DNA of 64,000 nt from Candidatus Eiseniibacteriota bacterium (GCA_031370785.1 JANMQY010000060.1:4826-68825); one strand, 5' to 3'. Shown: positions 2,063-15,151, numbered from the stretch's first letter. Numbers and translations: made by a program. Notes: generated by a model not told the origin, from the sequence alone.

Positions 2063-4135
2063 TCACCAGATCACGACCCTCACGCTGTCGGCGCGCCACA
2101 TCGCGTCGCCGGGCTTCACGTCGAACGCCTTGTAGAACTCGGGGAAGTTCGCGACCGGCCCGTTGACCCGCAGGAACTGGGGCGCGTGCACGTCGGTCAT
2201 GATCTGTTGCGCGAGCGCTTCCGGCCGGCGCTGGCCGAGCCACGAGAGCGCGTAGCCCAGGAAGTAACGCTGATCGGGGGTGAGGCCGTTGATCTTCTCG
2301 CCCTTCTTCCACTGCTCGGTCTTCTTGAACGCTTCGTAGCCGAGCCTCACGCCGCCCAGGTCGGCGATGTTCTCGCCGAGGGTCGCGCGGCCTCGAACGT
2401 GCTTGTCGCCCACGACGTACTGATCGAACTGATCCACCAGCTTCTGCGCGCGCCCGCTGAACTGGACCGAGTCCTGTTCGGTCCACCATGGATTCATGTT
2501 GCCCTTCTCGTCGAACTGGCGACCTTCGTCATCGAACCCGTGCGTGATCTCGTGCCCGATGGTCGAGCCTCCGGCGTAGGAGTAGAGCACTGCGTCGTCG
2601 ACCAGTGAGTCGGGCACGCCGGGAAGCATGAAGGCGGCGGCGGGAAGCACGATCTCGACCTTGGACCCGTCGTAGTATGCGTTGTAGGTCTGCGGCGTCA
2701 TGTACCACTCGGTGCGATCGATCGGCTTCCCGAGCTTCGCGGCCTCGTGGCGGAACCACCACTCGTCGATCCGGACCCGATTCGCGGCGAACGAGCTGCG
2801 ATCGATCCGGAGCGCCGAGTAGTCGCGCCAGCGATCAGGGTAGGCGACCTTCCGGGCCACCCTGTCGAGCTTGGCCAGCGCCCGCTGCCGGGTCGTCTCG
2901 CTCATCCACGGCAGCGTGCGGATCCGATCGCGGTACACGCTGATGATGTTCTCGGTCAGCTTCTCGTAGCGCGCCTTGGTCGCGGGCGAGCAGTACCTGC
3001 TGACCCAGACCGCGCCCATCAGCTCGCCGATGCCGTCCTCTTCGGCATCGAGGACGCGCTTCCACCGTGGCCTCTGCTCCTTGGTGCCCGACATCACGGT
3101 GCCGTAGAAGCGGAAGTTCTCGCGATCGAAGGGCCGGCTGAGACTGGGCGCGAGAGTGTTGACCACGTTCCAGCGCAGATAGGTCTTCCAGTCGCCGAGC
3201 GGCACCGCGGTGAGGCTCGAATCCACCTGCAAGAAGAACTCGGGCTGCGCCACGATCACGGTGTCGACGGCGGCGATTCCCATCGCCGCGAATTGCCGCT
3301 TCCAGTCGATCGCGGGCGTGAGCGAGGCGAGCTGGCCGAGCGACATCTTGTTGTAGTTGGCCCACGGATCGCGCCGCTCCTCCAGAGTGCGCGAGCGCTT
3401 GGCGAGCCTGGTCTCGATGCGAACGATGGTCGCGCTCGAGCGGCGTGCGGTCGCGGCGTCCTCGCCGAGCAGATGGAACATCGCCGCCACGTGCTTCGCG
3501 TATTCGGCGCGAATGTGCTTCGTGGTCGAGTCGATGTTGAAGTAGTAGTCCCGATCGGGCAGTCGCAGTCCGCCCTGGTACAGATGGACCATGTACTGGT
3601 CGCTGTTGCGCTCGTCCTGACCGACGTACACCGAGTAGAGCGGCCGGAATCCCAGCACCTGAAATCGGGCGACGGTACCGAGTAGATCCTCGCGGGTGCG
3701 GATCGCGGCGATCTGATCGAGAGATGGCTTCAGTGGCGCGGCTCCCTGACGTTCGATTGTCACCGAGTCGAGGCCCGTCGCCCAGAAGTCCCCGACCTTC
3801 TGCTCGCTGGTTCCGCGGGCTGCGCCGGACCTTGCGGACGACTCACAGATCCCGGTGAGTTGCCGATAGACCTCCTCGCGCACGAGGTTCGCGATCCCCC
3901 AGCCGCGCTCCGCCGGGGGGATTGGATTCTGTTTCAGCCATCGCCCGTTGGCGTACTGGAAGAAATCCGTTCCGGGGCTGGTCGACGGATCCATGTTCAG
4001 CACGAGTGGATCCTTGTCGCGCGGGAGTGAAGGTTGGTCGTCCGCGGCGCGGAGCAGAGCCGGGATCGCGACGAGCAGGCTCACTGCCACGACTACGAGA
4101 ATCGACGATCGGTTCGAGGTCGAGTGCCGGGTCAC
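2063..4135 (-). CDS. M13 family zinc metallopeptidase (neprilysin/PepO-like), secreted
   Basis: Carries HEITHGFDDEG (HEXXH), ENIADLGG and NAYY motifs. The signal peptide MTRHSTSNRSSILVVVAVSLLVAIPALLRAADD begins at a GTG at 4135, with AGGAAAGGA upstream. The track ORF was extended to an upstream TTG. Confidence 0.85.
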   Translation of the reverse strand: MTRHSTSNRSSILVVVAVSLLVAIPALLRAADDQPSLPRDKDPLVLNMDPSTSPGTDFFQYANGRWLKQNPIPPAERGWGIANLVREEVYRQLTGICESSARSGAARGTSEQKVGDFWATGLDSVTIERQGAAPLKPSLDQIAAIRTREDLLGTVARFQVLGFRPLYSVYVGQDERNSDQYMVHLYQGGLRLPDRDYYFNIDSTTKHIRAEYAKHVAAMFHLLGEDAATARRSSATIVRIETRLAKRSRTLEERRDPWANYNKMSLGQLASLTPAIDWKRQFAAMGIAAVDTVIVAQPEFFLQVDSSLTAVPLGDWKTYLRWNVVNTLAPSLSRPFDRENFRFYGTVMSGTKEQRPRWKRVLDAEEDGIGELMGAVWVSRYCSPATKARYEKLTENIISVYRDRIRTLPWMSETTRQRALAKLDRVARKVAYPDRWRDYSALRIDRSSFAANRVRIDEWWFRHEAAKLGKPIDRTEWYMTPQTYNAYYDGSKVEIVLPAAAFMLPGVPDSLVDDAVLYSYAGGSTIGHEITHGFDDEGRQFDEKGNMNPWWTEQDSVQFSGRAQKLVDQFDQYVVGDKHVRGRATLGENIADLGGVRLGYEAFKKTEQWKKGEKINGLTPDQRYFLGYALSWLGQRRPEALAQQIMTDVHAPQFLRVNGPVANFPEFYKAFDVKPGDAMWRADSVRVVIW

Positions 4136-4479
4136 GGGCAATCCTTTCCTGTGGAGTAGTAAAGGAGCGAGGGCGGCAGAATAGGGCGGAGGCGCGCCGA
4201 AGACCAAATGGCGGCGTTCTAGAGGGCAGAACTCGAGTCACGTCTGGTTCTGCTCGTGATCTCGGCGGAGCGGCTCGGGTCCTAGCGCAACATCACGACT
4301 CGCGCGGTCAGCGCCCGCGTGCCGGACGGGTTCGAGACCACCGCGCGGGCAATCATGGAGTTTCGAGCCCTCCAGAAGCCGACAGTCAGAGGCTCAAGAG
4401 TCCCGATTCCGGTGCCGATAACGGACCGCGGTGGCCGAAGACCGGCTGTCCGCAGACCCGTACCGAGGAGGAATCCCAA

Positions 4480-5058
4480 ATGTCCGCCTTCGACAATGAA
4501 AGCATGGAATACGCAGAGTTGATGGCCCGCCGTCGCGAGGCGGAACGCACCTGGCAGATCTGCTGGACCGCCTCCGGCCTGATTGCCGGGGTGTTGCTGT
4601 CCTGGGCGATCGCCGCCCGCAGCTCCGGGTTGATGCTCCCGGTGATTCTCGCGGTGGCCTACGGTTTTTACGTCATGAATCACGCACGCAAGCAGGTCCT
4701 GATGATTGGTGGCTACGTCGAGGAGTTCTTCGAGAACCGCTCGAACGGGCCGCAGTGGTTCTCGCGCGTCGCCCGCACGAGGTCGGTCGCTGGCTTCAGT
4801 CCGATGAGCGGCTTCTTCTTCACCCTTCTGTCGGACGTGGCAGTGGCTCTCGCCGTGATTTTTGCGTGGATGTTCGCCCCGACAGCTCCGCGCGGCGAAC
4901 TGATGGCGGGCATCGTTACGGGATTCGGCGTGACGTTCGTATTCCACTCCCTGTTCGAGACCGCACAGCTGCAGCAGATTGACTTCGCCGCATTCTGGCG
5001 TCAGGCGAACAGCGGCCCGACGGCCGTCAAGCAAAGCAGCCGGGTCGCGAGCCGCTAA
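4480..5058 (+). CDS. hypothetical 4-TM membrane protein
   Basis: ATG at 4480 is preceded by GAGGAGG. The product MSAFDNESMEYAELMARRREAERTWQICWTASGLIAGVLLSWAIA... has four hydrophobic segments. The upstream 186 codons of the track ORF are Arg/Gly-rich noise. Confidence 0.55.
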   Translation: MSAFDNESMEYAELMARRREAERTWQICWTASGLIAGVLLSWAIAARSSGLMLPVILAVAYGFYVMNHARKQVLMIGGYVEEFFENRSNGPQWFSRVARTRSVAGFSPMSGFFFTLLSDVAVALAVIFAWMFAPTAPRGELMAGIVTGFGVTFVFHSLFETAQLQQIDFAAFWRQANSGPTAVKQSSRVASR

Positions 5059-5072
5059 AACGCGCGAACTCG

Positions 5073-5112
5073 AAGCCCCCGGGGGTCACGCCTCCGGGGG
5101 CTTTCGGCTTTT
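5073..5112 (+). terminator. rho-independent terminator candidate
   Basis: A 10-bp stem (AAGCCCCCGG / CCGGGGGCTT) with an 11-nt loop is followed by TCGGCTTTT, just downstream of the 5058 stop. Confidence 0.5.
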
Positions 5113-5183
5113 CAGGTCGAGGGCGCGACCGGCGCGGGGGAGGTGCCCCGCGCCGGTTCGTGATGCCACGAATGCGTTCGTGC

Positions 5184-6560
5184 CTAGCGTCCGTCTGGCC
5201 TCACGACGGCCATGCCGAGATCCACATCGTCCACATGGTCCAGGCGCAGCAGATCCCCGCGCAGCGACTGCCAGCCGCCGGCGAGCGCCGCGAACGCAAG
5301 ATCCTCGGTCGGGGGCAGGTCCTGAAGGAAAACGAACGCCGCCCCGGCCATGAAGCGCGGCAGGACATTGCGATCGTAGTGGCCCGAATCGCGCGTCGAG
5401 CGACGCGCGTCCAGCACCTGCTGAACCGTCGTCCCCTCGCCGCACACGTCCCTCCAGCGCGTCTCGATCTCTTTCACGCGGTCGGGCTGCGCCGCGCGCA
5501 CGATGTCGGAGACCAGCGCGTAGGCATCGAGCTCGCCTTCGGGCGTGTACGAGGTCCACACCACGCGCGCGCTGGTCGAGCGCTGCGTGTTCTGGTGGGC
5601 GAGTGTCGCGCCTTCCCTGGTCGCGATCACTTCATACTCCACATCCACGGTCACGGTGCGCACGCGCGCGACCAGTTCGACCGGCACGGACACCCAGCGC
5701 GTGACCCGTTCTCCCGCCGCATCCTTCTCGACGATGCGGCGCGCGATCACATCGGTGAAGAGGTGCAGCCTGGTGTGCGCTTCGACGTTTCCGATCGAGC
5801 CCCACACCACGCGCTCGGCGCCGGCCTTGCGGGCGAACCGGATCGCGTCTTCGCGAGAGAGGCGTCCGAGCTGCGAGACGGTCATCTGCTGCTCGATGGC
5901 CGCGCTGCCAAGGATGCGCGTGAAATGGCAGTCCGGCGGACTCATGCCCTGCGCCAGGTGGTCACGCCACTCGGCGGCCACGTCGCGCCCGAGCGAAACG
6001 CTCGAGGAACCGGAGGAGAACGGCACGACCGCGACCCGGGTCAGCGCCTTCTCGTAGGCTTTGTCCGCGAGCTTGGCCGCGTCCCGATAGTCGGGCACGA
6101 AGCGCCGGGAATCCGAGAACTGAAGGTAGGCGCGCTTGGGCCGGCGCGCGGTGAGATCCGTGACGCCGCGCTGATAGTAGGTGCGCGCGGCGGTCTGGCG
6201 GAGCGCCTGCTCCTCCTGCGACCACTCGGGGCTCACCGAGATCGCGGCGTAGCGGAAGGCGTCCATCCGGAACGCCGTGAGCGCAAGCACCTGCTCGGCG
6301 GCCGCGAGGCTGTCGGACAGGGTCAGCGAATGAATGCGCTGCTCCCAGTTCCGGGCCATGGCGTTGCCGGCCGCGGTGGCCGCAGCGCGTGCACGCGCGT
6401 TGCCGGGATCCTTGTTGAGTGCGCGCGTGGCGAGTTCCCAGGCGCGGCCGTTCTCGCCACCGGCGAGCTTCTCTTCGCTCTTCTGTGCGAGCTTTGCGGG
6501 TCCAGCACATCCGAGCAGGACCAGAAGCGCCAGGGCGGCCGGCGTAATTCGACGGAGCAT
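5184..6560 (-). CDS. hypothetical lipoprotein
   Basis: Internal start MLRRITPAALALLVLLGCAGP carries a lipobox (LLGC). A G-rich SD (AAAGGGGG) lies upstream of its ATG. The product is 458 aa with no recognisable catalytic motif. Confidence 0.6.
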   Translation of the reverse strand: MLRRITPAALALLVLLGCAGPAKLAQKSEEKLAGGENGRAWELATRALNKDPGNARARAAATAAGNAMARNWEQRIHSLTLSDSLAAAEQVLALTAFRMDAFRYAAISVSPEWSQEEQALRQTAARTYYQRGVTDLTARRPKRAYLQFSDSRRFVPDYRDAAKLADKAYEKALTRVAVVPFSSGSSSVSLGRDVAAEWRDHLAQGMSPPDCHFTRILGSAAIEQQMTVSQLGRLSREDAIRFARKAGAERVVWGSIGNVEAHTRLHLFTDVIARRIVEKDAAGERVTRWVSVPVELVARVRTVTVDVEYEVIATREGATLAHQNTQRSTSARVVWTSYTPEGELDAYALVSDIVRAAQPDRVKEIETRWRDVCGEGTTVQQVLDARRSTRDSGHYDRNVLPRFMAGAAFVFLQDLPPTEDLAFAALAGGWQSLRGDLLRLDHVDDVDLGMAVVRPDGR

Positions 6561-6727
6561 GGGAAGGCCCCCTTTCGTTCGCGTGTTATCGGCCTGGCAG
6601 GAATGGGACTTGAGAGTGAGACCCGGAACCTCCGGAAGTGGTCCAGGGCCGCGCTCAAAGACCGCGCAGCGCGGAACCGGTGCCCGGGTTCCGCGCTGCA
6701 CTCGCAACCATTCGCAACCAGCTCGCT

Positions 6728-9406
6728 TCAGGCCGCCTGCGCCCCGTTTTCCTCGCTGTCGACACCGTCTCCGCCCCGAACGAGGGCGACGGCACTGCGG
6801 ACGTTCGACGTCACGTCCCGCTCCTCCTTCAGGCCCTGGATGACGGACTCCGCCTGCTTCAGCATGGAGCGGAGCGAACGGGTCTTCTCGACCGCCTGGT
6901 CGATGAGGACCTTCTGTCCTTGCAGCGTTTCGATACTGGAGTGCATGTCGGCGAGCAGTGCATCCGCTCGGGCTAGGCGCTCCTCCGCCTTGTTCATCTG
7001 ACGAGTGCGCTCGTCGAGCTTGCTCGAAGTGTCCTGCACCTCGACAAGCCGATCCATCACTTCGTGCAGCATCGTGCGACTCTGCTCGACATCTGCCCGG
7101 GCCGCGTTGATCTCCCGGATCTCGCTCGCGGTCTTCTCGGCCATCGAGAACATGCGGTCGAGATCGGCCTGTATGGCGTCGAGCGTGCCCTGACGTGCGC
7201 AGATCTGCTCCAGCGACCTGGCCACATCAGGCTCGACCGCATCCCAGCGCGCCAGGCGCTCTTCAAACGTATCCAGCCTGCCCGAGACGGAATGCAGATC
7301 GCTGGCGCGCTCCTCGAGCTGTGCGGCGAGCGCTCCGATCTGCTGCGTGCGCTCGTCGGCGGTCGCGAGCGAACCGGTCAGCCGCTTGGTCAGCTCGCCG
7401 AGTTTCTGTGCTGATGCAGCCGCCTCCTGGCGCAGCTCCGTCGCCCGTTCGAGATCCTTGGCGGTCTCCGCGAGCGCGTGCTGCCGGTGATCGAGATCCT
7501 GCTTGAGGGTTCGAGTCTTCTCGGCCAGCTCCGCGACCGACTCGCATCGCGCCTCGATTGCCTCGACCGCCTTGGCCGTCTTGTCGGTTCTGGCACGCGA
7601 GTCGCTGACGCCGGATGCGATCGACGCGATCGTCCTGCTCATGCGGTCGGCCTCTTCCGAATGCGACGACAGTGCGACGAAGCGCTGCTCGGCGGCCTCC
7701 ATGCGGGACTGCAGATCGCGACTGCGCTCGTCCAGCCTCGAACTGAGCGCGCCTTGCTCCGCCAGTCGGCGGTTCAGGTCCTCCACGAACTCCCGCCGCG
7801 ACTCGATGACGGTGATGAAGTCGTGCACACGCTGCGCTTGCTTCTGCACGATTTCGATGGTCGGGGCCATGCCCTTCACGTCACTGATCTGCTGGCCGAC
7901 TTCGCCGACAGACTGCTCGACGCTCGACAGCCAGGTGCGTGTCTCGGACTGGCTCTCGAATACCCGGACAATCTCGCCGTTGGCCACCTGCATCTGCTCG
8001 AGCGCGTCCTTCACCATCGCGTGGGCGTGGGCCAGCCGCTCCAGGTCTCGGACTGCGGCCTCGACTGCCGGCCGCGCGGCCTCGATCTGTGCGACCTTCG
8101 CCGCGGACTCGTGGGCAGCCCTGCCCATTTCGTCCAGATCCCGGCGTACGCCTTTTGCCTTTGCGATCTCTTCGTCGATGTGTCCGATCTCGTCCGAGAA
8201 CGTGCTCAGGCTGGCCGACAGTGCCTGCGTCCGCGACTGGAGCTCTCCGACGTTCCGGCTCGTCTCGCTCAGGGACTTGAAACGGTTCTCGAAATCCACG
8301 AGCGCGCCACGCAGGTCCGCAACGCGCTGGCTGACCGATTCGAGGCCCCGGTTCTCGAAGTCGAACCGCTCGATCGACTTCCTGGTCTCGTCCTGCATCG
8401 TCGCCAGGTCGTGACGCGTCGCCCGAGTCTGTTCGCCTGCCTCGTGCTGAAGCTGGGTGATCTCCTCGGAACGTTCGAGCACCGAATCATGCAGCGACCG
8501 AAGCGTGGAGACATCCCTTTGCATTGCCTTGAGCGCCTTCTCGTTGTCCTGTTGCTGGGCGACGCCGGCATTGACCTGCTTCATGGCGTGCTCGAGCTGG
8601 TCCGCCCGGGCGAGCGCAGCCTCGATGGCGTCGCGCTGCGATTCGAGCGCCGCGCTCTTCTGTGCGACGAATTCTCCAAGCGCCTTCAGGGTTCCAAGCT
8701 CCCGCTTGACGCTGTCTACTGAGCTCTGGACGCCATCCATCGCACGGATGGAGTGCTCGACGCTGCCCACCCGACGTTCCTTGTCCTGCAGATCGCGGCT
8801 GAACTCCTCGCGACGCCGGTCCAGCGCTTCCATCTTGGACATCCCGAGCTTGTGGGCGTCGAGGAGCCGGTCATGCTGCGCTCCGAGGCGGGCAAGCTGA
8901 TCGCGCGTTCCGTCGACCTGACCGCGGAGCGCCTCGGCGTCGCCGCGCAATTCCTGTAGTGGCTTGTCCACCTCGAGGAATCCCTCGAGCTGCTCCTTCA
9001 GCTTCAAGGCCGAGTCCACCCGTTGGCCGAGCTCTTCGAACATCGCGCGGACCCGCCCGGCATTTTCGAGCGAGTCAGCGATCTGCGCTTCCATGTGCTG
9101 ATGGCCGTCCGCGACCGCCTGAGTGCGCTCCTCCAGGGACTGCAGCCGAGTCGACAGCTGCGCCATCGCCTCGAAGCGTTCCTCCAGTTTGCCGAGGCCT
9201 TCGGATACGCTGCCCACCCCGCTCTGCGCGATCGCGATGGGATCCTCGAGCTCGCGCAGGCGATCCGCCGCCGTCCGCGCGCGCTCGATGAGCGCCTCGC
9301 TGCGGGTGCGCTCCTGCCGCATCTCCTCAGCGACCGCGCGCATCTCCTCGATGAGCTGCTGATCCTTGGAACCATTTCCGAGCAGACTCTTGAGCATGGG
9401 AACCAT
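6728..9406 (-). CDS. large (about 892 aa) all-coiled-coil protein, hypothetical
   Basis: The start MVPMLKSLLGNGSKDQQLIEEM is preceded by AAGGAGGG. The whole product is heptad-like E/R/Q/L/A-rich sequence with no Walker motifs or TM segments. The N-terminal 110 codons of the track ORF are unlikely to be translated. Confidence 0.65.
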   Translation of the reverse strand: MVPMLKSLLGNGSKDQQLIEEMRAVAEEMRQERTRSEALIERARTAADRLRELEDPIAIAQSGVGSVSEGLGKLEERFEAMAQLSTRLQSLEERTQAVADGHQHMEAQIADSLENAGRVRAMFEELGQRVDSALKLKEQLEGFLEVDKPLQELRGDAEALRGQVDGTRDQLARLGAQHDRLLDAHKLGMSKMEALDRRREEFSRDLQDKERRVGSVEHSIRAMDGVQSSVDSVKRELGTLKALGEFVAQKSAALESQRDAIEAALARADQLEHAMKQVNAGVAQQQDNEKALKAMQRDVSTLRSLHDSVLERSEEITQLQHEAGEQTRATRHDLATMQDETRKSIERFDFENRGLESVSQRVADLRGALVDFENRFKSLSETSRNVGELQSRTQALSASLSTFSDEIGHIDEEIAKAKGVRRDLDEMGRAAHESAAKVAQIEAARPAVEAAVRDLERLAHAHAMVKDALEQMQVANGEIVRVFESQSETRTWLSSVEQSVGEVGQQISDVKGMAPTIEIVQKQAQRVHDFITVIESRREFVEDLNRRLAEQGALSSRLDERSRDLQSRMEAAEQRFVALSSHSEEADRMSRTIASIASGVSDSRARTDKTAKAVEAIEARCESVAELAEKTRTLKQDLDHRQHALAETAKDLERATELRQEAAASAQKLGELTKRLTGSLATADERTQQIGALAAQLEERASDLHSVSGRLDTFEERLARWDAVEPDVARSLEQICARQGTLDAIQADLDRMFSMAEKTASEIREINAARADVEQSRTMLHEVMDRLVEVQDTSSKLDERTRQMNKAEERLARADALLADMHSSIETLQGQKVLIDQAVEKTRSLRSMLKQAESVIQGLKEERDVTSNVRSAVALVRGGDGVDSEENGAQAA

Positions 9407-9907
9407 GGAACCCTCCTTCGAAAGCGCCGAGCACCGGACCCGATCCGGACGACTGCGTTCACTGGGCGAATGGGGACTCGTTTCTCCGCGTGTCGGCCGA
9501 GACCTGGGGGAGAGGTCGGACGCGGTGCGTATTGGTCCCCGAGGCAAGACCCGCGCCGAGTCGGGACCAATGCTCACGCGCAGATCTGCCAATTGACGTG
9601 AGCGCAGGGAATACGCGTCATCAGGAACCGCACGGGCCGGGTATGGAAGGAGCCCTCTCGTCGACGGACCGCCCAACAAGTGACCGGAATCCGGTTGCGC
9701 CGGGCCACGTCCGAGCCAAGCCATGCGAAGCCGCACGGGAGAGGGCCCCCAAAGGCTGCGTCCGTCAGGCGCCAGGCCGCGTTCGTGCGGCCGTCGACCG
9801 CAGCCGGGGAATCATGAGCCACTCTGCCACCCGCCAAGGCCGGCCCGCGCGGACCCCCGCGCCAACGACGGCCGCCTTCGAACCGCCTTCCGCCCAGGAG
9901 CCCTCTC

Positions 9908-11065
9908 ATGTCGTTCGCTCGTTTCGCCGCCGTTTCGCTTGCCCTCGTCGCGCTCGCCGGTCCCGCGGTCGCGGATGATTCCGGCAATTTCGTGATCCGG
10001 CTCGGCCAGGACACGACCAGTGTCGAGCATTACACCCGCACCCCTTCTCGCATCGAGGTGAACCAGGTCGGCCGCGCGCCGCGAGTGCTGAAGCGTCACT
10101 TCACCTATGACTTCACCAACGGCGCGATCTCGAAGCTGGCCGTGATGGTGACGGCTCCGGCCTCCCCGACGCCGACCCAGACCATCGATGCCACGTTCGG
10201 GCCGGACTCGATGTTCATGCAGATCAAGTCCGGCACCGCGCCGGTGCAGAACGTCCACGTCGCAATGCCGACCGGAACCGTGGTCGTGGCGCTCTCGAGC
10301 CCTTGGGCGGTGTACGAGAAGTCGATCGCGAAGCTGGTACAGGGCAAGAGCGACAGCCTGCGTTCCCCGATGTACCTGATCGGCGCGGACGCGATGAACT
10401 GGCTCAGCCTGCACAAGCTCGGCCGCGACTCGGTCGTTCTCTCCAATGACCACGGGGACCTGTTCCATGTGCGCGTCGACAAGGCGGGCCATGTCCTCGG
10501 CGTGCTGCCGATCTCGGGCACCGGCAAGTTCAGTGTGGAGCGCGTCCCGACACTGGATCTGGAGGCGATGACCGCGGTGTTCGCCGCGCGCGAAAAGGCC
10601 GGTGCGGGCGTCGGTGTGCTCTCACCGCGCGACACGGTGCGCTCCAACGTCGGTGGAGCCGCGCTGCTGGTGGACTATGGCCGGCCGGGCAAGCGCGGGC
10701 GGGTGATCTACGGCAATGTCGTGCCGTACGGCGAGGTATGGCGCACCGGCGCGAACGCCGCGACCCAGCTCAGGACCGACAAGGCGCTCGACTTCGGTGG
10801 CACCGTGGTGCCTGCGGGTTTCTACACGATGTGGACGCTTCCGACCGCCACCGGCTGGAAGCTCATCTTCAACAGCCAGACCGGTCAGTGGGGCACCGCG
10901 CATGACGCCACGAAGGATCTCTACACGATCGACATGAAGATGAGCACGCTGCCCCAGCCGGTCGAGCGCTTCACCATCAGCGTGGATCCGAGTGCGGAGG
11001 GCGGCGTGCTGAACCTCGATTGGGATACGACGCGCGCGTCGGCCGCCTTCACGGTCAAGCCATAG
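9908..11065 (+). CDS. secreted DUF2911 domain protein
   Basis: Signal peptide MSFARFAAVSLALVALAGPAVA. The C-terminal region GNVVPYGEVWRTGANAATQLRTDKALDFGGTVVPAGFYTMWTLP...WKLIFNSQTGQWG matches the DUF2911 family. Confidence 0.7.
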   Translation: MSFARFAAVSLALVALAGPAVADDSGNFVIRLGQDTTSVEHYTRTPSRIEVNQVGRAPRVLKRHFTYDFTNGAISKLAVMVTAPASPTPTQTIDATFGPDSMFMQIKSGTAPVQNVHVAMPTGTVVVALSSPWAVYEKSIAKLVQGKSDSLRSPMYLIGADAMNWLSLHKLGRDSVVLSNDHGDLFHVRVDKAGHVLGVLPISGTGKFSVERVPTLDLEAMTAVFAAREKAGAGVGVLSPRDTVRSNVGGAALLVDYGRPGKRGRVIYGNVVPYGEVWRTGANAATQLRTDKALDFGGTVVPAGFYTMWTLPTATGWKLIFNSQTGQWGTAHDATKDLYTIDMKMSTLPQPVERFTISVDPSAEGGVLNLDWDTTRASAAFTVKP

Positions 11066-11078
11066 CGCGGGAGGCCCG

Positions 11079-11759
11079 ATGGAGACGCGCAGCCCGGTCG
11101 TGTTCCTGTTCGATGTCGACAACACATTGATCGACAACGACCGGGTCGCGGCGGATCTCAAGCGACATCTCGAGCGAGAGCTGGGGCGCGAGCGCGAGGA
11201 GCACTACTGGACGCTCTTCGAAGCGCTGCGGGCCGAGACCGGCTACGCGGATTACCTCGGCGCGCTGCAGCGCTACCGGGCGGAGCAGCCGCGGGATCAG
11301 GGTGTGCTCACCGTCTCGTCGTTCCTCATCGACTATCCGTTCGCCAACCGGCTCTACCCGAACTCGCTCGACGTTCTGGAGCGCTTCCTCGAGTCGGGAC
11401 CGGTCGTGATCCTCTCCGACGGCGACGCCGTTTTTCAGCCGCGCAAGGTCCAGCGCTCGGGACTGTTCGAAGCGGCGAACGGAAACGTGCTCATCTACAT
11501 CCACAAGGAGCTCGAGCTCGAGGACGTCGAGCGCCGCTACCCGGCCGACCACTACGTGCTGGTGGACGACAAGCTGCGGATTCTGACCGCGGTCAAGCGC
11601 GCGTGGGGCAAGCGGGTCACGACCGTGTTCCCGCGCCAGGGCCACTACGCGCACGATGCAAAGCTGCTCTCGACCTATCCCGGCGCGGATTTCACCGTGG
11701 AGCGGATCGGGGAGTTGCTGGACGTGACCGCCGAGAACCTGGTGGGAGGGGCACAATGA
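11079..11759 (+). CDS. HAD family hydrolase
   Basis: N-terminal FLFDVDNTLID (DxDxT motif I), 226 aa. GGGAGG lies upstream of the ATG. Confidence 0.75.
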   Translation: METRSPVVFLFDVDNTLIDNDRVAADLKRHLERELGREREEHYWTLFEALRAETGYADYLGALQRYRAEQPRDQGVLTVSSFLIDYPFANRLYPNSLDVLERFLESGPVVILSDGDAVFQPRKVQRSGLFEAANGNVLIYIHKELELEDVERRYPADHYVLVDDKLRILTAVKRAWGKRVTTVFPRQGHYAHDAKLLSTYPGADFTVERIGELLDVTAENLVGGAQ

Positions 11760-11762
11760 CCC

Positions 11763-12320
11763 CTACCGCCCGCCCCGCGGCTGAACCGCGCGTGCCAGCT
11801 CGATGGCCTTGATCAGCGAGACCACGTCGAAGCCGCCGTCGTGCCGGACCTCGTTGATGAAGAACGTGGGCGTCCCGTTGACGCCGCTGCGGACTCCGCT
11901 CAGAAAGTCCTCGCGAACACGGGGCATGTGAATCCCCTGGCTCAGCTCGAGCACGAATCGGTGCATGTCGAGCCCCAGGATCCCGGCGTAGGACAGCAGC
12001 GACTCCGCGTCGAGCATGTCCTGGTGCTCGAACAGCAGGTCGTGCATCTCCCAGAACTTGTCCTTTGCGCCCGCGGCCTCGGCGGCCTCGGCCGCGGGTT
12101 CGGCGTTCGGGTGCACGCTGGCCAGCGGGAAATGTCGATAGACGAAGCGAAGCTCTTCGCCCAGTCGCCTGCGGACCTCACGCACCACGGGATGTGCCGC
12201 GCCACAGTGCGGACACTCGAAATCGCCGTACTCGACGAGAGTGACCGGTGCCGTTGCCGGCCCGAGGGCGTGATCGCGCCTGCTGACGGGCAGCATGAGA
12301 CGCGGTGCAAGGGCCTTCAT
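11763..12320 (-). CDS. DsbA-like thioredoxin-fold thiol:disulfide oxidoreductase
   Basis: Internal start MKALAPRL..., then VTLVEYGDFECPHCGAAHP (CPHC active site) and a C-terminal NGTPTFFIN. The track ORF is over-extended upstream through the peroxiredoxin remnant. Confidence 0.65.
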   Translation of the reverse strand: MKALAPRLMLPVSRRDHALGPATAPVTLVEYGDFECPHCGAAHPVVREVRRRLGEELRFVYRHFPLASVHPNAEPAAEAAEAAGAKDKFWEMHDLLFEHQDMLDAESLLSYAGILGLDMHRFVLELSQGIHMPRVREDFLSGVRSGVNGTPTFFINEVRHDGGFDVVSLIKAIELARAVQPRGGR

Positions 12321-12547
12321 GACGTGATGCCCTTGTGGATCGACTCGAGCGCCGCGAGGATGCCGTCGGCGCGCGACGCCGCGCCGCTGGGCTCGAAGTC
12401 CGCGAGCAGTGGAAACTGGAGCTTCCGGTCCTTCGCGAACGCCTTGTGGCACCACGCTCCGTCGACGGAAATCCCCAACGGCTTCTTGTCGGGCGTGCTG
12501 TTCAGCGTGAAGTCCGGCGCCACAGTTCCTTCGCTCAGGGGTTCCAT
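12317..12547 (-). pseudogene. peroxiredoxin (AhpC/TSA, Bcp-like) remnant lacking the peroxidatic Cys region
   Basis: The 76-aa ORF MEPLSEGTVAPDFTLNSTPDKKPLGISVDGAWCHKAFAKDRKLQFPLLADFEP... matches a Bcp N-terminus (APDFTL). It then jumps straight to the post-active-site region (GISVD...FPLLSDF), missing about 45 residues including the CP motif. It is also C-terminally short. Its TGA overlaps the ATG of the downstream DsbA-like gene. Confidence 0.4.
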
Positions 12548-12556
12548 GGTGTCCTC

Positions 12557-13402
12557 CTAGATCGTGGGTAATTCCCGCGGGCGTGGTCCTCGCGGAAAGG
12601 CTTTGTCGATCCGCCCGAGTTCGGCTTCGCTCAGCTCGAGGTCCGCGGACCCCGCGTTCTCGGCCGCGTGTTCCGGCTTTGATGCCTTCGGAATTGCGAA
12701 GACTGACGGCCTCCGCAGCAGGAATCTCAGCGCGACCTGGCGCGGAGTAGCCTGATGTGCGGCGGCGATTTCCTGAAGCACGCGCCCGCCCGGCGTCGTC
12801 GGCCCGGGAAAGCCCTTGTGTCCGAACGGGCTGTAGGCCACCACCGCGACACCCTGCTTTTCGCACCAGGGAATGACCGCGTGCTCGATCGCGCGCTCCT
12901 TCAGATGGTAGAGAACCTGATTGCACGCGAAGACGTACTTGCCGGCGATCTCGCTGGCCTCCACCAGATCCGGAACATCGAAGTTGCTGACGCCCCACGA
13001 GAGGATCTTGCCCGCGCGGCGCAGCTCCTCGAATGCCGCGATCGTGTCCTCGAGCGGATGCGCGCCGCGCCAGTGCAACAGATAGCAGTCCAGCCGATCG
13101 GTCTTAAGGTGCGAGAGCGAGCCGTGGCAGGCCGCGATGGTTCCCTTTCGTGAAGCGTTCTGGGGAAGCACCTTCGAAACCAGAAAAACTTCTTCGCGCC
13201 GCCCCGCGATTGCTTCGGCCACGATCGACTCGACGACCCCCGACCCGTACATCTCCGCGGTGTCGATGTGAGTCATGCCGAGATCGAGTCCGCGGCGCAA
13301 CGCGGCCACCGACACGTCTCGCGGGGCATTGTCCAGATACCACGTTCCCTGGCCGATCGCTGCGACTTTCCGCTTCGTGGAACCGAATCGGCGCTGTTCC
13401 AC
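12557..13402 (-). CDS. aldo/keto reductase
   Basis: Start MEQRRFGSTKRKVAAIGQGTWYL is family-typical. It contains HIDTAEMYG and AVVAYSPFG motifs, and GACGGAGG lies upstream of the GTG. Confidence 0.8.
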   Translation of the reverse strand: MEQRRFGSTKRKVAAIGQGTWYLDNAPRDVSVAALRRGLDLGMTHIDTAEMYGSGVVESIVAEAIAGRREEVFLVSKVLPQNASRKGTIAACHGSLSHLKTDRLDCYLLHWRGAHPLEDTIAAFEELRRAGKILSWGVSNFDVPDLVEASEIAGKYVFACNQVLYHLKERAIEHAVIPWCEKQGVAVVAYSPFGHKGFPGPTTPGGRVLQEIAAAHQATPRQVALRFLLRRPSVFAIPKASKPEHAAENAGSADLELSEAELGRIDKAFPRGPRPRELPTI

Positions 13403-13546
13403 GTCCTGCCTCCGTCTTTGTCGAAACGGCGAACCTGAACCTGGAATGCTGTTCCTGCACGGAAGTGATGTCAACATGTGCCGATGGCGACCCCCAAGCC
13501 ACCCCGGTCAAACCAACCTCACGCGGGTGCATCCCGACCCACTACC

Positions 13547-14341
13547 ATGTCGCCCATGACGAAGGGTGATTCCCCGCGATTCGAGCGCTACGTCGCCATT
13601 GGCGACAGCTCCACCGAGGGCCTCGACGACCCCGACGGGCAGGGAGGCTACCGCGGCTGGTCCAGCCGGCTGGCGGAGCGGATCGCGCGGAGACAGGGCC
13701 GGCTGCTCCATGCGAACCTGGCGGTTCGCGGCAGGACGACGCGCCAGATCCGGGAGCAGCAACTCGAGCGTGCGGCCGCGATGAATCCCGATCTCGCGAC
13801 GGTGTTCTCGGGCACCAACGATGTGTTCCAGCCGCGCTTCGACGCCGACCGGCTGGGCGCCGACATCGACCTCATGCAGCGCACTCTCGTCGCGGGTGGG
13901 GCCACCGTGCTCACGTTCACCCTGCCCGACCTGACTCCGATCATGCCGCTCGCGCGTCCGCTCGCGCCGCGGATCCACGCTCTGAACGATGCGCTGAGAT
14001 CCGTCTCCCGTGCGACGGGCACGATCCTCGTCGATTTCGCGGCGCATCCGGGCGCGACCGATCCCAGGCTCTGGAGTGAGGACCGGTTCCACGCGAACTC
14101 GAGAGGCCACGCTCTGATCGCCGAGGCACTCGCGCACGCTCTTGGGCTGCCGGGCAGCGATGATGCGTGGATGCGGCCGCTGCCGTTCGAGGCTCCGCCA
14201 GGTCCGCGCGCGCGAATCACTGCCGAACTGCGGTGGATACGGCGCCACGTCATGCCCTTGATGTGGCGTCGCCCGGGTGGCCCGCCGATGGAAGACTTTC
14301 GCGGCAAACAGCCGGAGCTGCGGCCGGTCGAAACGGGTTAG
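13547..14341 (+). CDS. SGNH/GDSL family hydrolase
   Basis: Carries the motifs VAIGDSSTEG, GTND and DRFHAN (DxxH). The internal ATG start is MSPMTKGD. Confidence 0.7.
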   Translation: MSPMTKGDSPRFERYVAIGDSSTEGLDDPDGQGGYRGWSSRLAERIARRQGRLLHANLAVRGRTTRQIREQQLERAAAMNPDLATVFSGTNDVFQPRFDADRLGADIDLMQRTLVAGGATVLTFTLPDLTPIMPLARPLAPRIHALNDALRSVSRATGTILVDFAAHPGATDPRLWSEDRFHANSRGHALIAEALAHALGLPGSDDAWMRPLPFEAPPGPRARITAELRWIRRHVMPLMWRRPGGPPMEDFRGKQPELRPVETG

Positions 14342-14353
14342 CGCGAAGCGCCG

Positions 14354-15151
14354 CTACGTCGCGGGCTTCGGCGCCGGGCGCGGCGCGAAGGAGGCATCCG
14401 CCTCGGCGGCAGCCATGTCCTCGGCCGAGAAGTAGCGCACCACCTGTTCACGCTGGCCCGGACGCGTGTAGACGTCGGCGCGCGGCGTGCGAATGACGCC
14501 GACGATCACTTCGGCGACTTCCTCGACCGGCTGCGCGTTCGGGAAGGTGCGGGAGTCCGCGCCACCGCCCAGCGCGTTCAGGCCGAAGTCGGTCGCGACC
14601 ACACCCGGGAGCACCGTGGACACGTGGATGTCGCGGTAGCCGGCGCGCAGCTCCATCCGCAGGTTCGCGGTCAGGGCATTCAGCGCATGCTTGGCCGCAC
14701 TGTAGGCGGAGCGCATCGGGGCGAAAGGGATGCGGCTCAGCATCGATGAGACGTTGATGATGTGCCCGCGGCCACGCTCGCGGAAGTGGGGCAGCACGAC
14801 CTGCATGCCGTACAGCGCGGACTTCACGTTGACGCGCATCATCTCGTCGAAATCGTCATCGCTCAGCTGCGACACCGGGCGGGTCAGCCCGCGCCCCGCG
14901 TTGTTCACCCACACGTCCACGTGGCCGAAGCGCGCCAGCGCCGAATCGAAGATGCGCTGCACCTCCTCGCGACGCGTGACGTCCGCGACCACGGCGAGGC
15001 TCTGGCCGCCGCATGCCGCCGCGACCTCGCGCAGCTCGGCCTCGCGGCGCGCGGCGAGCACGGCGGCGCCGCCGAGCTCGGCCACGCGCCGCGCGAGCGC
15101 AGCGCCGATGCCGCTGCTGGCGCCAGTGATCAAGACCACCTTGTCACGCAT
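14354..15151 (-). CDS. SDR family oxidoreductase
   Basis: VVLITGASSGIG Rossmann motif plus a YSAAK catalytic motif. Confidence 0.85.
   Translation of the reverse strand: MRDKVVLITGASSGIGAALARRVAELGGAAVLAARREAELREVAAACGGQSLAVVADVTRREEVQRIFDSALARFGHVDVWVNNAGRGLTRPVSQLSDDDFDEMMRVNVKSALYGMQVVLPHFRERGRGHIINVSSMLSRIPFAPMRSAYSAAKHALNALTANLRMELRAGYRDIHVSTVLPGVVATDFGLNALGGGADSRTFPNAQPVEEVAEVIVGVIRTPRADVYTRPGQREQVVRYFSAEDMAAAEADASFAPRPAPKPAT

Follow-up and report, generated by a model that had tools for sequence, protein, structure and literature searches.

What does a bacterium do with a protein of almost 900 residues that is coiled coil from end to end, and does that protein work together with the lipoprotein encoded beside it? 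The question is raised by a stretch of 64,000 nucleotides (nt) from a Candidatus Eiseniibacteriota bacterium (GCA_031370785.1 JANMQY010000060.1:4826-68825; hereafter, the window), in which a minus-strand gene at 6728..9406, called the CC gene here after its coiled-coil (CC) product, lies 167 nt upstream of, and co-directional with, a gene for a 458-residue lipoprotein. An earlier reading made from the sequence alone (the sequence-only reading) described this geometry correctly and presented the two products as a pair. We argue instead that the CC protein belongs to an undescribed family of cytoplasmic coiled coils, that it would most likely act as a rod or scaffold of fixed length, anchored to the membrane and expressed conditionally, and that the lipoprotein is unrelated to it; to this reading as a whole we assign a probability of roughly 0.45.

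Judged from its more than 200 homologues at 50–85% identity, the CC open reading frame (ORF) is a real gene and not a chance ORF. Its start is preceded by the strong Shine–Dalgarno sequence that the sequence-only reading had picked out (GAAGGAGGG, 4 nt before the ATG), and a AAGGAGCG Shine–Dalgarno is kept in the orthologues. Translation yields 892 residues beginning with MVPMLKSLLGNG and made up largely of alanine (13%), glutamate (11.7%), arginine (10.2%), leucine (9.9%), serine (8.3%) and glutamine (7.2%), and the AlphaFold2 model of the monomer is helical over residues 13–867 (predicted local distance difference test score (pLDDT) 65, predicted template modelling score (pTM) 0.20), in agreement with the all-coiled-coil protein of about 892 residues proposed earlier. 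Motif searches (G/A-x4-GK[ST] and hhhhD[DE]) found no Walker A or B motif, hydropathy analysis found no transmembrane segment or signal peptide (highest Kyte–Doolittle 19-residue mean, 0.64) and the Pfam scan gave no family at its cut-off; the earlier description of a protein free of Walker motifs, transmembrane segments, signal peptide and globular domains therefore stands. Apart from LA_3659_fam, to which we return, scans with Pfam, NCBIfam and PADLOC produced coiled-coil noise below thresholds. Foldseek with the low-confidence model returned 0 matches and a profile search of the PDB gave nothing usable (weak matches to 2ch7 and 3ja6), so that no clear domain match emerged from Pfam or the PDB, where the sequence-only reading had pointed for distant relatives.

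The noise includes weak NCBIfam and PADLOC matches to the arms of SMC, Rad50, MukB, JetC and LmuB, and CC homologues carry the JGI label ‘chromosome segregation ATPase’, both of which would suit an SMC/Rad50/MukB-type or other DNA-associated protein. The CC protein scores only 32–85 bits against the SMC, MukB, RecN and Rad50 cut-offs of 567–1087 bits, however, leaving the matches to such arms 10–50 times under their cut-offs; the reversed sequence scores similarly, and an end-to-end helix without Walker A/B motifs, head or hinge is not the architecture of such proteins. A DNA-associated role of this type is hardly credible, the JGI label is a coiled-coil artefact, and the earlier judgement that the protein is not of the SMC/MukB/RecN type was sound.

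What the protein does resemble is a family of its own. The homologues, found in metagenomes and metagenome-assembled genomes (MAGs), are nearly all 885–900 residues long, and those that are named come from Candidatus Eisenbacteria. Relatives are encoded at 108 loci of GTDB species representatives, and at the 80 such loci retrieved (Eisenbacteria and Gemmatimonadota) complete ORFs measure 880–902 residues without exception; the Gemmatimonadota members, with an identity of only 35%, align over approximately 870 positions with almost no gaps. Conservation spans the full length, and R, D, E, W, F and P are among the residues that never vary, as in the motif RFDFE..GLESVSQRVADLRG. Searching a family profile against 1.84 billion cluster representatives gave 798 matches at E ≤ 1e-3, whereas just 225 reached E ≤ 1e-30, among them distant members of about 900 residues that match end to end. 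This small family falls into three length classes: members of about 880–917 residues that align end to end, members of 712–748 residues that lack residues 446–605 of the window protein, and members of 1072–1261 residues with extra sequence inserted near the N terminus. Two contigs, of 5.6 Mb and 8.7 Mb, carry a distant member of 912 residues. On these comparisons, the CC protein is a member of an undescribed bacterial family without a curated model. Clustering of the neighbours at 83 CC loci found no conserved partner gene, and the characterization of the protein as a solitary, very long, domain-less and uncharacterised coiled coil thus holds.

Two loci encode tandem paralogues: in L171 the two proteins are 712 residues each and 64% identical (5671..7809 and 8001..10139), and in L170 they are 1261 and 1065 residues and 38% identical (8001..11786 and 11944..15141). 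All four share the N-terminal peptide and the periodicity described below, and the equal-sized L171 pair fits two chains that pair in register. Separately, the Eisenbacteria MAG GCA_040961615.1 contains a pair of CC copies with 70% identity to each other (L084, 5150..7828; L002, 8001..10679), of which the first is followed by the lipoprotein gene and the second is solitary; they could reflect a true duplication or a mixed bin.

The evidence for a continuous rod comes from periodicity. Fourier analysis of the core-forming residues gave the alignment profile one sharp peak, at 3.46 residues, with a normalised power of 128 (shuffles, <10; at 3.50, approximately 2). The peak is phase-coherent along approximately 855 residues; the window sequence taken alone reaches a power of 104 at the same period, and each 140-residue sub-window gives 3.44–3.48. 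Gemmatimonadota homologues also have a period of 3.46, and all 26 distant members tested (712–1261 residues) lie at 3.45–3.475 with negligible power at 3.50; near 3.64, the CC protein has no power. Among the controls, the strictly heptad cytoplasmic domain of Tsr gave 3.495–3.50 and the arms of MukB and SbcC gave weak, incoherent peaks, and synthetic sequences returned 3.50 for plain heptads and 3.455 for heptads with +3 shifts placed at the observed sites. Register tracking put 92% of the residues in a strong heptad frame, with approximately 24 frame changes, including 15 of +3 (the stammer type), four of +6 and three of +4, and the core has a classical coiled-coil composition (L/V/A at positions a and d, E/R at e and R/Q at g). 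The period is 3.46 because approximately 20 conserved stammer-type (+3) register shifts are spread among the heptads. The sequence-only reading had called the protein heptad-like and missed that, with a period of 3.46, this is no ordinary heptad repeat; it also missed the length conservation across phyla and the conserved amphipathic peptide at the N terminus.

Stammers raise left-handed supercoiling and strain, and the known non-heptad coiled coils mostly have periods above 3.5 (PMC4786415). Our search of the literature on SpiroCoCo, Eisenbacteria coiled coils and a 3.46 periodicity found nothing relevant. In the structure we envisage, the chains would pair parallel and in register, as a homodimer here and as a heterodimer where equal-sized tandem paralogues occur, and the dimer would wind into a left-handed supercoil that is overwound, its pitch being approximately 11 nm instead of approximately 14.5 nm (computed at 3.63 residues per turn) and its extended length approximately 125 nm. 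A bolder proposal, possible but doubtful in our estimate, is that the family constitutes a new structural class of natural coiled coil, a very long parallel homodimer or heterodimer of tandem paralogues with a period of 3.46 (about 38/11 or 45/13) and a pitch near 11 nm, overwound by stammers that are regularly interspersed and fixed in evolution. It would serve Eisenbacteria, Gemmatimonadota and other lineages as a membrane-tethered ruler of fixed length or as a cytoskeletal element, and would be expressed in Eisenbacteria from a dedicated sigma-54-type promoter.

A chain with this seam might also fold back on itself into antiparallel hairpins or three-helix bundles, as in spectrin, EzrA or methyl-accepting chemotaxis proteins (MCPs), which would make a much shorter particle. 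The AlphaFold2 helix breaks at conserved Pro/Gly sites (145–149, 221–226, 513–515 and 596–606), and the segment missing from the 712–748-residue class is delimited by conserved Pro446 and the break at 596–606, with invariant Pro515 inside it, as would be expected if that class had lost a hairpin arm. Alignment of 150-residue blocks with hhalign, in search of an internal repeat, gave only one weak match (508–577 against 747–812), an internal similarity that would also suit such a fold. The 3.46 phase coherence nevertheless persists through the break sites, with the same +3 shifts, whereas arbitrary loops would destroy it; covariation analysis (mutual information with average product correction; 201 sequences, low power) yielded phylogenetic noise but nothing along the antidiagonals, and AlphaFold2 offered no confident tertiary packing at a pTM of 0.20. 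We therefore consider a folded particle unlikely.

All members of the family start with a short amphipathic peptide of the pattern M-x-x-L-(L/F)-K-x-L-(L/F)-G, often followed by LPEEL. Eisenbacteria have MxPLLKNLLGNG; the Gemmatimonadales counterpart is MAWNIFG, and other members have MASLFKSFFGG, MAAALKKLFG or comparable sequences. Within the Eisenbacteria peptide L8 and G10 are invariant and M1, L9 and N11 are at least 90% conserved. SepF, MreB and PspA have N-terminal amphipathic membrane-targeting helices. The CC peptide is like these in that positions i, i+1, i+4 and i+5 are hydrophobic, with a basic residue between them and a glycine thereafter, and by this analogy it may be a membrane or partner anchor; the likeness is one of analogy only, and the remainder of the protein is unrelated to SepF, MreB or PspA. 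At the other end, every member has a disordered tail; within Eisenbacteria A891 is invariant and the acidic tail, of about 25 residues, ends in A-x-A-A.

Among curated models, the spirochaete coiled-coil group SpiroCoCo/LA_3659 (NCBIfam NF047514-6), whose members are presumably also long solitary bacterial coiled coils, scores best. The CC protein scores 122.4 bits with SpiroCoCo_C (NF047515; cut-off, 125 bits) and 45 bits with LA_3659_fam (NF047516; cut-off, 36 bits), and its homologue at L067 reaches 156.9 bits, which might make the CC protein a distant member of that group. We set SpiroCoCo membership aside because fragment, homologue and reversed-sequence controls attribute the match mainly to composition and periodicity. 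Reversing the CC sequence leaves a SpiroCoCo_C score of 83 bits; when the protein is cut into N-terminal, middle and C-terminal thirds, each third scores 44–54 bits against a different, non-collinear part of SpiroCoCo_C; the best-matching stretches in homologues lie at differing positions (224–406 or 359–528); and SpiroCoCo_N (NF047514; cut-off, 75 bits) gives 45 bits. With LA_3659_fam the picture is mixed: the forward score passes the cut-off, but the reversed sequence reaches 31 bits and the match is confined to residues 623–719; that model appears prone to coiled-coil false positives. Kinship with the spirochaete proteins is very unlikely.

Bacteria contain proteins rich in coiled coils (CCRPs) that resemble intermediate filament (IF) proteins, including crescentin, FilP/Scy, Helicobacter Ccrp and cyanobacterial CCRPs, some of which occur as tandem pairs. 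Like these proteins, which are often lineage-specific, the CC protein is long, domain-less, cytoplasmic and devoid of nucleotide binding, and, like some CCRPs, it occurs as tandem paralogues (L170 and L171). There is no sequence relationship to crescentin, FilP/Scy or the CCRPs, however, and unlike IF proteins and Scy the CC protein has no segmented rod, linkers, stutter or 51-residue hendecad repeat, its shifts being mostly +3 rather than +4; the stammer-made 3.46 seam, the near-invariant length across phyla and the conserved N-terminal amphipathic peptide further distinguish it from CCRPs. By analogy, the lineage-specific coiled-coil-rich cytoskeletal proteins would be its closest functional counterparts, with filament formation only putative here. 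The MCP cytoplasmic domain is similar in being very regular and length-conserved, with subfamily lengths that differ by discrete blocks. It differs in period (3.50 in Tsr) and in forming a hairpin four-helix bundle on transmembrane sensors, and Pfam found no MCPsignal domain in the CC protein.

A conserved block, rGGyCCGCcTCTTGCA, lies 100–170 nt before the CC ATG in 56 of 71 orthologous upstream regions (approximately 9 in shuffles). A position weight matrix (PWM) built from it found 55 strong matches in 1.87 Mb, 54 of them upstream of CC genes, and the site at 9543..9558 is its sole match within the 64 kb of the window. The spacing of its GG and TTGC elements is like that of a sigma-54 promoter, and nothing resembling a −10 element is conserved after the block or 17 nt downstream of it. 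A scan of the window with the generic sigma-54 consensus gave nothing above chance, and sigma-54 dependence of the CC gene is uncertain. The block, which precedes the gene in most Eisenbacteria, is carried at orthologous positions in loci L001–L071, L083, L084 and L158 and is absent from Gemmatimonadales loci. Many loci have a second copy approximately 90 nt farther upstream (for example, L023 at −227, GTGGCTGGCATTTTGCC). One Eisenbacteria clade (L034, L038, L043, L049, L050, L053, L056 and L066) is without the block and has instead, at about −100, the CGATAAC-type motif GCCGATAAC. A conserved GGCGGCGCG(T)CC box abuts the 5′ side of the AAGGAGCG Shine–Dalgarno of CC genes (9421..9445 (−) in the window), and RNAalifold found no supported structure in the conserved leader 5′ of the Shine–Dalgarno.

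The enterobacterial pspA gene is sigma-54 dependent, and PspA is a coiled coil with an N-terminal amphipathic helix. The conserved sigma-54-type element and the N-terminal peptide would accordingly also suit a PspA/Vipp1-like protein, one induced by stress through a sigma-54 activator that protects or remodels membranes by binding an amphipathic helix to damaged sites. Such a role is quite unlikely: the CC protein has no PspA_IM30 match (Pfam, E ≤ 1), is four times longer and shows no evident ESCRT-III-like hairpin; its loci include no psp-type neighbours; a search of 1.87 Mb of Eisenbacteria loci did not confirm sigma-54 machinery; and the Gemmatimonadota orthologues are without the element.

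The lipoprotein ORF is, by the same kind of comparison, a real gene rather than a chance ORF, with more than 380 homologues at 58–99% identity. The product begins with MLRRITPAALALLVLLGC and has a signal peptide and lipobox (MLRRITPAALALLVLLG-C) in which C18 is kept by all 33 homologues and the conservation of G17 is 90% or higher, and in which the −2 residue is leucine, slightly off the strict lipobox consensus. Its AlphaFold2 model is confident (pLDDT 86, pTM 0.71) and consists of a TPR-like helical domain (residues 21–172) followed by an alpha/beta domain with a long beta-hairpin (250–336). Sequence-level searches of Pfam, NCBIfam and the PDB found no match; structurally, the alpha/beta domain is like LpoB, PelC, the TolB N-terminal domain and a flagellar LPHT-ring protein, from all of which the lipoprotein differs in the extra hairpin and in its combination of domains. 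The model predicts an outer-membrane-anchored periplasmic protein of scaffold type. At 87 lipoprotein loci, clustering of neighbours found no conserved partner.

Could the two proteins nevertheless form a functional envelope-spanning pair, as the sequence-only reading had implied? The genes are adjacent and co-directional, CC first, in the window, L083 and L084, and in the reverse order in L004, L005, L009, L051 and L158; an adjacency of approximately 1–5% in two orders is far over the approximately 0.1% expected for random genes. The counts across related genomes nonetheless show that the pair is not conserved, the outcome that the sequence-only reading had itself named as refuting. Of 82 species-representative CC loci, 4 have the lipoprotein gene within 10 kb, in each case upstream of the CC gene and so opposite to the window order, and the CC gene adjoins the lipoprotein at 1 of 80 metagenomic lipoprotein loci, which leaves 78 of 82 and 79 of 80 loci, respectively, without the pair; the adjacent cases are scattered over the CC tree and the Gemmatimonadota CC loci contain no lipoprotein. 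Adjacency exceeds chance, yet this is no conserved operon.

Transcription signals also separate the genes. Approximately 31 nt before its ATG, the lipoprotein gene has the motif TCAA-N17-21-GATAAC, whose CGATAAC part is found in 52 of 76 orthologues (0.5 in shuffles). Because a separate conserved promoter-like motif precedes each of the CC and lipoprotein genes and a hairpin intervenes, the two are, on these sequence signals, separate transcription units. The lipoprotein motif also precedes the convergent four-segment gene of the window (4394..4422 (+)). TCAA-N17-21-GATAAC, with CCGATAAC, recurs approximately 30–60 nt before start codons and may represent the form that housekeeping promoters take in Eisenbacteria. 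L083 (5289..7967 and 8001..9377) is arranged differently: the gap is 33 nt, the lipoprotein’s CGATAAC motif is gone and the two genes may be co-transcribed. As the lipoprotein is predicted to be periplasmic and the CC protein has no export signal, the two would be in different compartments. A functional pair is thus highly improbable, and the lipoprotein is a bystander unrelated to the CC protein.

The rod we propose would be tethered by its N-terminal peptide either to a partner or to the cytoplasmic membrane at its inner face, and would be made only under particular conditions; its length would matter to its role, that of a scaffold, a spacer or an element of cytoskeletal type (coordinates in Table 1). 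Several points count against this reading. Membrane binding by the peptide is argued purely by analogy, and the putative oligomer has to be set beside a monomer model of low confidence (pLDDT 65, pTM 0.20). The helix breaks (145–146, 221–226, 513 and 596–606) together with the excisable segment 446–605 could mean a folded multi-hairpin. The periodicity controls were three Escherichia coli proteins, and other bacterial coiled-coil-rich families might share the 3.46 period; Fourier analysis of the charges found no long-range period of the kind that serves lateral assembly in myosin and IF proteins, and none beyond 3.46. As to expression, the window site has three mismatches to the enterobacterial sigma-54 consensus and alone is not above chance, and searches of the 1.87 Mb of Eisenbacteria loci found no RpoN box or GAFTGA activator.

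Table 1. Features of the CC gene, the lipoprotein gene and their surroundings, in window coordinates.
Feature	Position	Strand	Basis
CC gene, 892-residue all-helical coiled-coil protein (stop codon 6728..6730)	6728..9406	(-)	Translation, homologues, AlphaFold2, periodicity
Shine–Dalgarno GAAGGAGGG of the CC gene	9411..9419	(-)	4 nt 5′ of the ATG
N-terminal amphipathic peptide M-x-P-L-L-K-N-L-L-G-N-G, codons 1–12, putative membrane or partner anchor	9371..9406	(-)	Conservation
Rod, residues 13–867, hydrophobic seam at 3.46 residues, approximately 20 stammer-type shifts	6806..9370	(-)	Fourier analysis, register tracking
Module, residues 446–605, missing from the 712–748-residue subfamily	7592..8071	(-)	Profile alignment, AlphaFold2, conservation
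Acidic low-confidence C-terminal tail, residues 868–892, ending in A-x-A-A	6731..6805	(-)	pLDDT <50
Upstream element CGGCGCGGGTCTTGCC, GG-N8-TTGC, sigma-54-like −24/−12 spacing	9543..9558	(-)	151 nt before the CC ATG
Terminator-like GC-rich hairpin of 15 bp just past the CC stop	6664..6701	(-)	−45.8 kcal/mol over 88 nt, z = −2.1
Lipoprotein promoter-like motif TCAAG-N-CCGATAAC, within the 167-nt spacer	6585..6613	(-)	Orthologue conservation
Lipoprotein gene, 458 residues, TPR-like and LpoB/PelC/TolB-N-like alpha/beta domains	5184..6560	(-)	Translation, AlphaFold2
Pair of strong GC hairpins that separates the convergent lipoprotein and four-segment genes	5060..5183	(-)	−70.7 kcal/mol, z = −4.2
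Convergent gene with four hydrophobic segments	4480..5058	(+)	Beyond the hairpins

Around the two genes, the four-transmembrane protein that the sequence-only reading had placed beyond a terminator is encoded where it was expected, past the two GC hairpins. A 250-codon minus-strand ORF at 4282..5034 was rejected as a high-GC artefact antisense to this real gene. Farther downstream of the CC and lipoprotein genes is an M13 peptidase gene (2063..4207 (−)), and 11 of 83 loci encode a peptidase of the same family downstream of CC; Eisenbacteria loci are in general densely populated by secreted peptidases (S9, S46, Tricorn and M13). On the other side, approximately 500 nt of non-coding sequence (9407..9907) separate the CC start from a divergent DUF2911 gene (9908..11065 (+)). 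An Rfam scan of 4000..11500 gave only a spurious miRNA match on the hairpin, and none in 9407..9907.

Two results bear on how such loci are annotated: the upstream regions of the CC and lipoprotein genes provide the first comparative promoter motifs for Eisenbacteria, and the near-threshold SpiroCoCo match, together with the JGI ATPase label, is exposed as a coiled-coil artefact, as the LA_3659 match probably is too. For the biology of these bacteria, the CC protein is near-universal and single-copy in two soil phyla about which little is known, and it is uncharacterised; its conserved length suggests a ruler or scaffold. Stammers have been regarded as rare, strained and local defects (PMC4786415). 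If our reading is true, approximately 20 in-register stammers over approximately 855 residues, kept across phyla and length classes, would make a globally overwound supercoil a selectable design, and the CC family would be a natural model for studying overwound supercoils.

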